A stretch of 14,996 nt of DNA, taken from a virus. Taxonomy: Duplodnaviria > Heunggongvirae > Uroviricota > Caudoviricetes. This document shows, one piece after another, positions 895 to 4,552 of the stretch; the first letter of the stretch is position 1, and each line of letters starts with the position of its first letter. The stretch lies in IMG/VR virus record IMGVR_UViG_2713896798_000009, one strand, 5' to 3'. The notes under the pieces were generated by a model, which was given only the letters and a program-made list of their open reading frames with translations, was not told where the DNA came from and ran no database searches. A program made the position numbers and the translations under genes.

Positions 895-1176
895 TTACCG
901 CCGTAACCGCTCCGGCTTCTTCCAGTGGTACGTAATTTTTGCTTTTTCCCTGTACGTCTGCACGCGGCGACGGTAGGCCAGCATTTCAAGAACGCGGATC
1001 CGTATGTTGCGCATATCCACATCATTAAGCTGGATACCATCACGGCGCATCACCTCAGCAACAACTCGCGCATAATTTTCGGCGGTCACGCTGTCCGGCT
1101 GCGTGGCCTGTTCGTCATGCTGCTGGCTGATTCCAGAGACGCGGCGGATTAATCGCAGTATTTCGGCTTCTGTCAT
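895..1176 (-). CDS. hypothetical protein (93 aa), last gene of the packaging operon
   Basis: ATG at 1176 with GAGGT RBS about 7 nt upstream; 13 nt downstream of the terL stop; no family recognised. Confidence 0.5.
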   Translation of the reverse strand: MTEAEILRLIRRVSGISQQHDEQATQPDSVTAENYARVVAEVMRRDGIQLNDVDMRNIRIRVLEMLAYRRRVQTYREKAKITYHWKKPERLRR

Positions 1177-1189
1177 GCTGCTGACCTCA

Positions 1190-2851
1190 TTACACCCCGC
1201 TAAATTCTTCCAGTTTCTGGCGGTGGCTGTCGCTTATATCAAAAGCAAAATTCTCATGCTCTGCCTGGAATGTACCAAACGCCATCAGCGCCGCTACGCT
1301 CGGGTCTATCTTGTTCGGTGATTTTTTCTTGTTCGGCTTGATATTGGCGTTCGCGTCACTCTGCATCACGACGTTACTCATCGACCAGGACAACACCGGA
1401 TCGCCACGATGCACAATCACCCTGCGGTTAACAAAAACTTCGAACGATTTCGCCGCCGGACTGAATCTGAGGTAGGTTTGCGGGAACGGCTCCACCTCAA
1501 AACCAGCCCCCTGTAATTGCGTTCTCAGGTGCGTGGCGTTCCACGTATCAAAGCCCACCAGCCTGATATTAAATTTCTCCGCATCCTGCATGATGTCATC
1601 TCTGATCCGGTCGTAATCAATGCAGTCACCTGGCGTTGTGCGTATCCAGCCCGCTTTAGCCCACTGGCGATAGACAGCGCGGTTTTTATTGGCGGGGTTC
1701 TGTAGCTGGAACTCCGGCAGATAATGACGGGAAATCAGCATAATGGTTTTACCAACCGGAAAGGCATAGCACACGCTGGAAATATCGCTGGTTGATGATA
1801 AGTCCAGCCCCGCGTAACACTCCTGCCCGTGTAAATCTTCCTCCGTGAACGTTCCGGCACACTCAGCCCATGCGCCGTAACCCATCCACGGGGTAGCCCC
1901 CTGGCACCAGATATTAAATCGCTTTGTCATCATCTCCACCCATTGCGACGGAATACCCCGCGCTTTCTGGATGGTTGAGGCCAGTTTTTCACGATCCACG
2001 GAAACATCGATGTTAGGGTTAGCCTTTATCCACATCGCCGGATCATCAACCTCGTTTTCGTCGTCCAGCTCGTAAATCAGCACAAAAATTGAATCGTTGA
2101 CCTCTTCGCCGTCCAGGATCTGGCAGCAATAATCATAGTGCTGTTTACAGGCTGAAACGACGTTACTGCCCGATGTGGTAATGGCAAATAACAGCCCTTC
2201 GGGACGTGCGCCCATCCCCAGCTCAAGCGCGGAATAAACGCCGTTATCGGGGTGTAGGTGGTATTCGTCCACGATGGAAAGGCTTGGGTTTGTGCCCTCG
2301 ATGGTTGCCGCTTTTGCTGCCAGCGGCTTTAACAGGCTGTTGCTTTTCGGGTGCATCACCTTGTGGGCCTGAATATTCACCCGCCTGCGTAACGGTCGGG
2401 ATAAAAGGCACATCTGACGCGCATCATCAAAAACGATCCGCGCCTGGTCACGGCTCACCGCTGCGGTGTAGATATCCTGCTGCCCGTTCTCCATAATCAG
2501 AAACCAGTTAGCCAGAATCGCGGCGGTCGTGGATTTCGCATTTTTGCGCGGCACTTCGATAAAGGCGCTCGTGTATTTGCGCCGTCCGGTGGCCTTAACC
2601 TTAAAGCCGAGGATGCACGCAAAGGCGAACTGCTGCCACGGCTCCAGCTCAATGGGTCTGCCACGCATCGGCCCTTTTACGTGCGGGCACACCCTGGAAA
2701 AGGCAATAAACCGCTCCACGACCTCACGATCGAACGTATAAAGGGGGTTTTTAAGGTCAGAAAAGTACCGTTTAACGGCCTGTTTCAGCCGTTTACAGGC
2801 CGGAATTTTGCCCGTTTTTACGTCTTCTGCGTACTTATTCCAGGCGGTCAA
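1190..2851 (-). CDS. terL: terminase large subunit (HK97-like Terminase_1 type)
   Basis: 553-aa ORF; Walker A-like VPRKNAKST; typical TerL N-terminus and C-terminal nuclease region; TTG start at 2851 overlapping terS by 17 nt with a purine-rich RBS. Confidence 0.9.
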   Translation of the reverse strand: MTAWNKYAEDVKTGKIPACKRLKQAVKRYFSDLKNPLYTFDREVVERFIAFSRVCPHVKGPMRGRPIELEPWQQFAFACILGFKVKATGRRKYTSAFIEVPRKNAKSTTAAILANWFLIMENGQQDIYTAAVSRDQARIVFDDARQMCLLSRPLRRRVNIQAHKVMHPKSNSLLKPLAAKAATIEGTNPSLSIVDEYHLHPDNGVYSALELGMGARPEGLLFAITTSGSNVVSACKQHYDYCCQILDGEEVNDSIFVLIYELDDENEVDDPAMWIKANPNIDVSVDREKLASTIQKARGIPSQWVEMMTKRFNIWCQGATPWMGYGAWAECAGTFTEEDLHGQECYAGLDLSSTSDISSVCYAFPVGKTIMLISRHYLPEFQLQNPANKNRAVYRQWAKAGWIRTTPGDCIDYDRIRDDIMQDAEKFNIRLVGFDTWNATHLRTQLQGAGFEVEPFPQTYLRFSPAAKSFEVFVNRRVIVHRGDPVLSWSMSNVVMQSDANANIKPNKKKSPNKIDPSVAALMAFGTFQAEHENFAFDISDSHRQKLEEFSGV

Positions 2852-3191
2852 GCTCGTCCTCTTCTTCTGTTTCCGGTGGATTTTTACGGCGGCTTATCGG
2901 GTCAAAACCGAGCAAAGAGGCCATTTTTATCATCACTCTTTCCGCGTCGGATTTCGCGCTTAATGCGGGGTTTCTGCTCTCGCCGCCCTGACTGTTAACA
3001 ATGCTGAACCCGCGCGCCGCAAGGTCTGCGACGGCTTTCCGGTATATTGAGTAATTGACGCAATACAGTTCCAGATTACTCCAGTCGGCAGGGGTCAGGT
3101 CTCCCCGTTCCGCAAGCTGCCGCGATTTTTCCCGCCACTGCTTCACGGCGATATCATCCAGGTAGGCGGGGGCTTTCGGTGGTCTTGCCAT
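2835..3191 (-). CDS. terS: terminase small subunit (P27-family-like)
   Basis: 118-aa ORF with ATG start immediately upstream of and overlapping terL; sequence resembles P27-family TerS; acidic C-terminus. Confidence 0.75.
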   Translation of the reverse strand: MARPPKAPAYLDDIAVKQWREKSRQLAERGDLTPADWSNLELYCVNYSIYRKAVADLAARGFSIVNSQGGESRNPALSAKSDAERVMIKMASLLGFDPISRRKNPPETEEEDELDRLE

Positions 3192-3480
3192 GCTTATTTT
3201 TTCGCCAGATTATTTTTCAAAAAATTACCGTGCATAAAAATTTGGGGAGGCGGTCGGTTCTGGGCGGGGTCGGGTTCGTCCTGAAAACTCCCCCCACCCC
3301 GTCCGGCTGCCTCATCAGCGATTGCGGAAACATTCCATAACCTCGCGGTCACGGTCGTTTAATCGCGTCGCTGTGATGCGTTCTGCGCGTCCTGATGCTT
3401 TATCTTTATGCCCTGTTTCCTGTGCCTTCCATGCGTCACGCTGCCTTATAAGTCCACGGATAAGGCGGTTTTGTTCCCGC
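3192..3480. other. candidate cos / packaging-initiation region between the HNH and terS genes
   Basis: 289-bp non-coding gap in an otherwise tightly packed, overlapping operon; G-tract-rich segment about 3240-3310 (ggggaggcggtcgg...gggcggggtcggg...ccccccacccc); the HNH-cos-TerS-TerL arrangement is typical of HK97-like cos packaging. Confidence 0.3.
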
Positions 3481-3921
3481 TCATTCATCAGCGCCATACA
3501 TCCAGTTATTGCGGTTAGCGCCCCGTTCTTCCTCCTCACGGAATCCACCCGCAGCACGCTTGTTTTTTGTGGACGGATCAAGCCATTTCGTTTTCTGGTT
3601 ATGACACGCCTGGCACAATGGCTGATGATTCCACTCAGGCCAGAAGAGAACATCATTACCGCCATCGATTGGGATAATGTGATCCACCACCACGGCGGGC
3701 GTGTATATTCCTTTTTCCAGGCAATGCGCACATAACGGGTTTTTACTCAGATACATGGCGCGGTATTTCTCCCACTGCCTCGTATACCCTCGCTCCCTGC
3801 TGCTGCCTCTCCGGCTGTCCTGCTGCTGGCGTGCGCTGCGTCTGTGCTCCTCACACTTGCCGGACTTCACGCGCCTGTTGCAGCCTGGTTCTGTACATCG
3901 TCTTAATGGTTGCCACGGCAT
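3481..3921 (-). CDS. HNH endonuclease (terminase-associated)
   Basis: 146-aa ORF; Cys-rich N-terminus (CTEPGCNRRV...CEEH) and HNH core (VVVDHIIPI...GGND...N.QPLCQACHNQKT); ATG at 3921 shares one base with the upstream stop (TGATG). Confidence 0.85.
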   Translation of the reverse strand: MPWQPLRRCTEPGCNRRVKSGKCEEHRRSARQQQDSRRGSSRERGYTRQWEKYRAMYLSKNPLCAHCLEKGIYTPAVVVDHIIPIDGGNDVLFWPEWNHQPLCQACHNQKTKWLDPSTKNKRAAGGFREEEERGANRNNWMYGADE

Positions 3922-4217
3922 CAGTACACCCCCACATCACGGTAAGCCGTCCAGAGTGCGCCAATCGTCATGGGTACGTGTGTTTTTGCGTTATCCGCGA
4001 CAATCTGGCGATTCTCATACAGGTGAGCGATAAACATCATGCAGCCAATCTTTATGGCTGGCGTGAACTCCAGCCCGTCATCAAAGCGCCTGCCTATGTG
4101 TATCTGGCACGCCTCAAGCGATGCGGCAATGTATCCGCTGATTAACTGGTCTTCCTCGTCGCCATCGATGCGGCAATGGAGTTTCACTTCTTCCAGGGTG
4201 ATAAGTTCTTCTGTCAT
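3921..4217 (-). CDS. head-tail connector protein (gp6-like head completion)
   Basis: 98-aa ORF; N-terminus MTEELITLEEVKLHCRIDGDEEDQLISGYIAA typical of gp6-like connector proteins; ATGA overlap with the upstream gene. Confidence 0.7.
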   Translation of the reverse strand: MTEELITLEEVKLHCRIDGDEEDQLISGYIAASLEACQIHIGRRFDDGLEFTPAIKIGCMMFIAHLYENRQIVADNAKTHVPMTIGALWTAYRDVGVY

Positions 4218-4552
4218 TTTTCCGCGCCCTCACGACAAAGAATTTCAAGGCGTGTCCTGGCGGCATCCGGCAGCGGCTGCCCGATGATATTCAGTACACG
4301 CCCCGCCAGCGGCCCCGTATTGACCTTTATCCGGCTGGTGGCGTTGATGTCCTTCCGGTACCGTATCCAGATCCTTACGGTACCAATCGCCAGCTCTGCA
4401 CCCGATGAAATGGCCTCCTTGCTGCTGACCATGTTCACGCTTGCCCAGAGTGTGTGACCGTCCTCCCACGTTTCGAGTATTTCTCCCGTCATGGCTCTGG
4501 TCTGTTTCAGGGTCTGAATCGTTACCCTGTCACGCAGTCGCCCTATGTTCAT
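4214..4552 (-). CDS. head-tail joining / head closure protein
   Basis: Start chosen at ATG 4552 (MNIGRLRDRVTIQ...), which overlaps the portal stop as ATGA; the N-terminal motif is typical of phage head-tail joining proteins. The longer ORF-track start at 4594 would overlap the portal gene by 46 nt. Confidence 0.65.
   Translation of the reverse strand: MNIGRLRDRVTIQTLKQTRAMTGEILETWEDGHTLWASVNMVSSKEAISSGAELAIGTVRIWIRYRKDINATSRIKVNTGPLAGRVLNIIGQPLPDAARTRLEILCREGAEK

Follow-up and report, generated by a model that had tools for sequence, protein, structure and literature searches.

A proposed cos site with HK97-like organisation ahead of terS in a capsid-forming satellite of Escherichia coli

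Introduction

Where is the DNA of a phage satellite that carries its own terminase cut for packaging, and is the site its own or that of its helper? The question is raised by the IMG/VR record IMGVR_UViG_2713896798_000009, a stretch of 14,996 nucleotides (nt) that we call the window, meaning the stretch at its full length. Judged by its gene content, it is a capsid-forming phage-inducible chromosomal island (cf-PICI) of Escherichia coli with its genes on the minus strand. In its packaging operon, non-coding DNA separates a gene for an HNH endonuclease from terS, the small terminase gene, and an initial annotation had placed there a candidate cos site, raising the possibility that it is distinct from that of the helper. 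We propose that positions 3192-3314 are the satellite's own cos, organised like that of phage HK97, a reading to which we give a probability of roughly 0.8. That a cos lies within 3192-3314 is very likely, and that its exact 10-nt 3′ end is at 3247-3256 is reasonably likely. The placement in the gap is borne out by the assemblies of relatives, which open there, by conserved blocks, by a match in register with the HK97 cos and by the HK97-type large terminase (TerL) with an adjacent HNH.

Results

The gap upstream of terS

The distance between the HNH gene and terS is 289 bp (3192-3480), as first described, but not all of it is non-coding, since a gene at 3315-3497 leaves 123 bp (3192-3314). 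The gap is still the largest of the operon, at 123 rather than 289 bp, the next largest being the 55 bp between the capsid and protease genes, and the other junctions of the packaging operon do overlap or abut. The G- and C-rich tracts quoted by the initial annotation are present on the plus strand (GGGGAGGCGGTCGG at 3244-3257, GGGCGGGGTCGGG at 3262-3274 and CCCCCCACCCC at 3290-3300) and all three fall within the true 123-bp gap. Four G/C runs of at least 4 nt occur within 65 nt, which is equalled by only 29 of about 14,900 sliding windows.

Ends of packaged-form relatives

A tblastn search of TerS against phage records found LR881103.1 (vB_KppS-Ant), a linear record of 16,548 bp in which terS starts at base 23, preceded by 22 nt, and is followed in order by int, HNH and the small open reading frame (ORF), the last gene being a homologue of the small ORF at 3315-3497 of the window. 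The record ends ...GGGGTGGGGGAGGTTTTCAGGAC, within the upstream conserved box described below, and begins ACGAAAAGG, and 69 bp of the gap are absent from it in comparison with integrated IMG/VR copies. Thus the record represents a linear molecule that is opened inside the gap and has lost its terminal bases. vB_KppS-Ant was assembled from a phage preparation on Klebsiella pneumoniae DSM 30104, and is more than 99% identical to part of that genome (PMC8006926); a single cf-PICI, KpCIDSM30104, has been reported in this strain (bioRxiv 10.1101/2025.02.11.637232). Because of this match and the sole cf-PICI reported there, vB_KppS-Ant is most likely packaged KpCIDSM30104. It was published as a 'filamentous ssDNA phage' of a novel genus (PMC8006926), and by gene content we read it as a packaged cf-PICI. 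Directly after terL this record has an ORF of 2.3 kb (2036-4333 of LR881103) under the name 'tail length tape measure protein', to which nothing in the window corresponds.

The other packaged-form relative, contig IMGVR_UViG_3300022664_000095 (15,518 bp), reads terS-terL-...-int-...-capsid-portal-HNH-small ORF, which is the island's own order, circularly permuted and opened at the gap. Its start, quoted as CTCAAATTTTT, CTCAAATTTTTACG, CTCAAATTTTTACGC and CTCAAATTTTTACGCACGG, is at the base equivalent to window position 3246, and it ends ...CCGCAAGGCAC (GGCAC). Each locus with GCAAGGCAC has 12 nt ahead of CAAATTTTT, and the distance from CAGGAC to CAAATTTT is 33 nt in 118 of 119 loci; given these fixed spacings, the contig misses exactly 10 nt, CACCCGCCCC or a close variant. 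The corresponding core of the window, 3247-3256, also lies within the 69 bp absent from LR881103 and corresponds in position to the 10 nt that close the HK97 record. The loss of the core from both ends would be explained by 3′ overhangs that were blunt-ended, as filled-in 5′ overhangs would duplicate it. TerS and TerL of both relatives are 81-83% identical to those of the window.

These assemblies bear directly on the possibility that the element is packaged by a headful (pac) mechanism, in which case the gap would at most be recognised as a pac region and not be cut at a fixed position. A TerS-dependent headful mechanism is indeed used by many satellites, among them the pac-type Staphylococcus aureus pathogenicity islands (SaPIs), and TerS genes are often found beside pac sites. 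However, both linear assemblies are of unit length and non-redundant, are opened at one place with both ends in the same 69-bp stretch, and are thus neither permuted nor redundant in the manner of pac-type DNA. Moreover, an HK97-type TerL with an obligatory HNH partner is a hallmark of cos systems (PMC9410871), and cohesive ends have been reported for the DNA of KpCIDSM30104 itself (bioRxiv 10.1101/2025.02.11.637232). Headful packaging is therefore highly improbable here. Records of several phages with a P27-family TerS, the family to which the TerS of the window belongs, start about 100-180 nt before terS.

Conservation of the gap

Diversity was computed as the mean pairwise value over 95 distinct loci that were retrieved solely by the first 23 nt of terS, and were therefore unselected on the gap. 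With the predicted nicks at 3257/3256 on the bottom strand and 3247/3246 on the top strand, and +1 at 3246, the proposed cos region is laid out as follows.

3192-3314, no strand assigned: true non-coding gap and proposed cos region, from ORF coordinates and the conservation profile
3278-3300, minus strand: upstream conserved box GGGGTGGGGGGAGTTTTCAGGAC, -55 to -33 from the top-strand nick, diversity 0.115
3259-3277, minus strand: variable spacer, which holds the GGGCGGGGTCGGG tract, diversity 0.35 (neutral level)
3257-3258, minus strand: invariant AC just 5′ of the predicted bottom-strand nick, diversity 0.00, matching the contig end GGCAC
3247-3256, minus strand: predicted cohesive end (cosN), CGACCGCCTC on the coding (minus) strand and GAGGCGGTCG on the plus strand, the 10 nt absent from the linear contig, diversity 0.22
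3233-3246, minus strand: +1 to +14 of the left end, CCCAAATTTTTATG, diversity 0.078, the most conserved block of the gap
3218-3232, minus strand: +15 to +29, CACGGTAATTTTTTG, a G/C-containing core and then a T-tract, diversity 0.117
3209-3217, minus strand: AT block AAAAATAAT, which continues the cosB-like region, diversity 0.11
3192-3208: last 17 nt before the terS ATG, diversity 0.49 (neutral level)

The three non-coding blocks that flank the predicted cut have a diversity of 0.08-0.12, comparable to the replacement sites of terS (0.085 at first and 0.066 at second codon positions) and below the 0.35 of its third positions. The upstream box at 3278-3300 is a candidate termination (cosQ-like) element or a docking element for the nuclease or HNH, and 3218-3232 is, by analogy with HK97, a candidate TerS-binding (cosB-like) site. 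Not every tract that had been quoted as part of a cos keeps that role: 3244-3257 holds the predicted cohesive end and 3290-3300 lies in the conserved upstream box, but 3262-3274 belongs to the poorly conserved spacer.

The same layout is found in a Pasteurella element. In the cf-PICI Pmp7, whose TerS is 66% identical, we found the same boxes with the same spacing of 21+10+2 nt, in the order GGTGGGGGTAATTTTAAAAAG, 21 nt ending in AC, CGCCCCCCCA and ATCAAATTTTTACGCAAGGCAATTTTTTAGAAAATAA. When the gap was compared by blastn with 50,697 phage records, only records derived from cf-PICIs matched, and no phage among them shares the site at the nucleotide level.

Could the conserved blocks instead be transcriptional or translational signals of terS-terL, such as a promoter, a terminator or attenuator, an RNA structure or a G-quadruplex? 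The stretch directly upstream of terS is AT-rich, the plus strand has several G runs, and a 13-nt G/C inverted repeat with 85% complementarity (3262-3274 / 3292-3304) pairs the upstream box with the spacer, although in this element only. The repeat is not conserved in relatives, however, and a scan of 2900-3800 found no terminator and only weak promoter-like matches, all on the non-coding strand. The RNA fold of the gap (z=-1.6) is no better than that of shuffled sequences, and a search of Rfam at a permissive threshold gave no family, a chance match to a miRNA family (E=0.31) being far below the gathering score. Signals of this kind would also leave unexplained why the packaged-form assemblies open here, and we give such an explanation very little chance of being right.

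We also considered the inverted repeat as a hairpin or cruciform element and rejected it, since relatives do not keep the arm that falls in the variable spacer. In many relatives an ACCCC in the spacer could pair with a GGGGT in the box; the Ant-type spacer is without anything comparable. A site for integration host factor (IHF) was dropped as well: the consensus fits the Pasteurella sequence by eye, but not those of E. coli or Klebsiella.

Register with the HK97 cos

The 3′ overhangs of HK97 DNA are 10 nt long (PMC11331095; legend to Figure 1 of PMC9410871). In the HK97 record, which begins GTTTGAATTTAACGCTAACCCGATTTTTTTAG and ends ...GGGCAGGGGGGGGGGATCAAATCTTCAAAACCTTTGCCCCAAATGACCGCCGCCAAA, terS is at base 50, and the left end, GTTTGAATTTAACG, aligns in register with that of the cf-PICIs. 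When the Klebsiella-type cf-PICI sequence (-70 to +45) was slid ungapped along the HK97 cos junction, the register that aligns the cuts ranked first of 361, with 50 identities over 115 positions, a score reached by 7 of 20,000 shuffles. The minimal TerS site of HK97 spans +15 to +29; within it, T16 and a C:G pair at 21 are followed by an A:T tract (24-29) that is essential (PMC11331095); this segment reads CTAACCCGATTTTTT in the GenBank record, with which the published numbering agrees.

Several observations weigh against the proposed site, or against its exact form. The window's own sequence gives a weaker register match to HK97 (rank 3 of 361, reached by 213 of 20,000 shuffles), and the 10-nt core itself varies among relatives. 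Similarity between the TerS of the window and HK97 gp1 was not detectable (BLASTP E=2.4; no match in the Protein Data Bank (PDB), HK97 TerS structures included), so that the analogy between their TerS sites is positional only, and at +21 the window has an A where HK97 has the C:G pair. The packaged-form ends at the site come from two relatives, with a terminase about 82% identical, and not from the window's own element; they are assembly ends in two records only, vB_KppS-Ant brackets the site only to within 69 bp, and base resolution comes from a single metagenome contig. The exact left-end sequence of that contig occurs in 29 IMG/VR stretches and is at position 1 in this contig only. Three IMG/VR scans (83, 29 and 40 stretches) gave no further contigs ending at the site, and in a metagenome-wide scan for the left end the site was internal in every one of 26 contigs.

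These points leave room for a cos that lies in the gap but is cut otherwise, with nicks elsewhere, an overhang of a different length or 5′ polarity; the loss of 10 nt would then be an accident of assembly or trimming. Base-level resolution does come from that one contig, and the HK97 overhang is itself given once as 12 nt (PMC9410871). However, what is missing is precisely the C-rich core, which is bordered by the invariant AC and the most conserved block and coincides in register with the mapped ends of HK97, whose type of TerL the satellite has. We therefore consider a different cut geometry improbable and prefer the 10-nt 3′ end at 3247-3256. We infer the overhang polarity, the assignment of blocks to proteins and the transfer of the site to the window's own element, and the main residual uncertainty concerns the exact nick positions and the polarity.

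Packaging genes and the small gene inside the supposed gap

The genes around the site lie in the order HNH, small ORF, gap and terS, the ATG of terS (3191) being at +56 from the predicted cut.

3481-3921, minus strand: HNH endonuclease gene, the last enzyme gene before cos (Pfam HNH PF01844, E=9.4e-8)
3315-3497, minus strand: 60-amino-acid gene of unknown function (RefSeq coding sequence WP_024166058.1; phrog_3173, E=9.6e-35)
2835-3191, minus strand: terS, P27-family small terminase (Pfam Terminase_4, E=1.3e-23; phrog_83)
1190-2851, minus strand: terL, HK97-type large terminase with ATPase and nuclease (Pfam TerL_ATPase, TerL_nuclease)

The HNH protein also matches phrog_144 (HNH endonuclease, E=7.6e-43), in agreement with the RefSeq annotation, and resembles PDB 5H0M, deposited as 'HNH endonuclease' (E=1.8e-17); it is presumed to be the nicking partner of TerL. 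TerL matches the HK97 TerL structure PDB 6Z6D over residues 46-534 (E=2.9e-41). Downstream of terL, separated from it by 13 nt, lies a conserved hypothetical gene of 93 amino acids (895-1176, minus strand) that matches phrog_1561, of unknown function (E=1.4e-56), and, as the final gene of the packaging operon, precedes the end of the island.

The small ORF begins within the HNH gene, with an overlap of 17 nt, and stops 123 nt short of terS, thus filling 166 of the 289 bp. It is kept open in 86 of the 95 distinct related loci, with 54-61 amino acids, and its protein has a conserved C-terminal motif, (D/E)R(D/E)RE(V/L)xEC(F/M)RNR, outside which the sequence is divergent (40% identity to the Klebsiella-type homologue). 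In the other 9 loci (L148, L167, L170, L172, L177, L189, L212, L214 and L230), our search detected no such ORF at the expected place and in frame, and the cos boxes are still present in all four of these that were inspected (L148, L167, L170 and L172). Since the boxes are kept where the ORF is absent, the small protein may be dispensable, or otherwise replaced, in some lineages.

The phrog_3173 protein could conceivably be a cos-specific accessory factor. Its gene may correspond to 'hypothetical gene 1792', the loss of which severely reduces transfer of the cf-PICI EcCIEDL933. By eye, HK97 (about 495-700 of the stretch examined) and HK106 (about 180-385) have an ORF of about 67 codons that starts at an ATGA overlap with the stop of the HNH gene (gp74) and stops about 140 nt short of cos; the feature tables do not show it, and it is unlike the small protein of cf-PICIs. 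Small genes in this position, between HNH and cos, may recur in such systems.

The element

cf-PICIs are defined by their gene set (bioRxiv 10.1101/2022.09.08.507074 and 10.1101/2025.02.11.637232). Every long ORF of the window is on the minus strand, its packaging genes all match Pfam, and it has what the latter source lists for a cf-PICI, with genes for integrase, primase, capsid, protease, portal, head-closure, connector, HNH, TerS and TerL. The order of transcription is integrase, primase, major capsid protein, prohead protease, portal, head-closure, head-tail connector, HNH, terS and terL. No tail or lysis genes were found in the window's gene set, either with Pfam or in the RefSeq annotation of an identical island. 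The genes at the start of the transcription order are the following.

13779-14996, minus strand: integrase, first in transcription order
9713-11545, minus strand: primase, after the integrase

The identical island, with the same RefSeq annotation, is carried by E. coli SCPM-O-B-9504, where fragments of tqsA, an AI-2 (autoinducer-2) transporter gene, lie on both flanks (8902-9045 and 24089-24461 of the stretch examined), indicating that the cf-PICI is inserted in tqsA and splits it. Among 5,426 complete E. coli genomes, 382 carry sequence related to the region of the proposed site. Between gene blocks, the GC content of the window drops from about 0.52 to 0.33-0.40 in three stretches, at about 9450-9750 (upstream of the primase gene), 11550-12150 (around small regulator genes) and 13350-13800 (beside the integrase gene); they may be regulatory or origin regions.

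Discussion

If the cos of the satellite works as its layout and the HK97 system suggest, TerS would bind the conserved block downstream of the cut (about +1 to +38, window 3209-3246), and TerL, aided by the adjacent HNH, would nick the strands 10 nt apart, flanking CGACCGCCTC, to leave 10-nt 3′ cohesive ends. Packaging could then proceed from terS through the excised, concatemeric element and would halt at the next cos, where bound TerS would block the motor. In HK97, bound TerS is thought to stop the arriving motor and switch TerL to its nuclease mode (PMC10359639). The G-rich box at 3278-3300 would at that point be inside or just behind the motor, and may perhaps be a signal for termination or for positioning the nuclease.

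A further and rather doubtful idea is that cf-PICIs keep the HK97 cos geometry base for base despite an unrelated TerS, so that the machine of TerL, HNH and portal, and not TerS, would dictate the geometry. Three features would be shared under this idea: the G-rich box (about -55 to -33), the cut with its nicks staggered by 10 nt, and the T-tract site (about +23 to +29). Were it true, the near-invariant box GGGGTGGGGGAG(G)TTTTCAGGAC would be an undescribed termination or HNH-docking element common to HK97-like packaging.

Autonomous packaging of cf-PICIs with their own TerS, TerL and HNH has already been published; a cos of the HK97 type is expected here rather than surprising, and the current picture of satellite DNA packaging is unchanged. 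What the analysis offers is a concrete cos site, with a predicted 10-nt end and recognition blocks, for a widespread satellite family, with a layout that recurs in elements of Klebsiella and Pasteurella. Such a site could serve in cf-PICI-based transducing vectors and help to probe why the packaging of satellite and helper is mutually exclusive though both are of the HK97 type, and with it the genome ends in virome data can be correctly annotated.

Comparison with known systems

The closest likeness is to HK97, where the cos also lies between the HNH region and terS, as it does in HK106. Both phages have a G-tract about 40-55 nt upstream of the cut, at the same distance as the upstream box of cf-PICIs, and HK97 shares with the cf-PICIs a CAAAACC, a C/G-rich 10-nt core and an AATTT.ACGC at +7 to +15. 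The T-tract is at +24 to +30 in HK97, +23 to +29 in the Klebsiella type and +23 to +28 in the window. The TerL proteins are homologous and an HNH gene lies beside the terminase in each case; the HNH protein of HK97, gp74, stimulates cleavage (PMC11331095, PMC9410871). The core differs, being CGCCGCCAAA in HK97 and CGACCGCCTC in the window, as does the +15 to +29 segment (CTAACCCGATTTTTT versus CACGGTAATTTTTTG). The TerS of the window, of the P27/Terminase_4 family, is not detectably related to gp1, and a different small gene precedes the site.

EcCIEDL933 and KpCIDSM30104 are elements of the same type as the window, with the same gene set. HK106 is a helper of EcCIEDL933 (bioRxiv 10.1101/2022.09.08.507074), and its cos junction is identical to that of HK97. 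As the core and the +15 to +29 segment of the satellite differ from those of both phages, its cos appears to be of the same design but of a different sequence. This difference fits the point of the initial annotation that a satellite with a cos distinct from the helper's would be packaged autonomously from it. The transfer of cf-PICIs depends on packaging genes of their own, TerS, TerL and HNH among them, and does not need the packaging module of the helper (bioRxiv 10.1101/2022.09.08.507074). The literature searched gave neither the position nor the sequence of a cf-PICI cos, and those proposed here are drawn from public assemblies.

The lambda cos (cosQ-cosN-cosB) is similar in having an upstream element, a staggered nicking site and a TerS-binding region ahead of the small-terminase gene. 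Lambda has 12-nt 5′ overhangs, gpA and Nu1 without an HNH partner, and R sites and IHF sites. The window, in contrast, has an HK97-type TerL with HNH, and the contig of its relative loses the core and does not duplicate it, which argues against filled-in 5′ overhangs; neither 5′ polarity nor involvement of IHF is supported by any of our analyses.

Among satellites, the cos-type SaPIs such as SaPIbov5, and P4, are likewise packaged from a cos, and cleavage in SaPIbov5/phi12 is HNH-dependent (cited in bioRxiv 10.1101/2022.09.08.507074). However, SaPIbov5 and P4 copy the cos of their helper and use its terminase, whereas the element in the window has its own terminase, its own HNH and, in all probability, a different cos.

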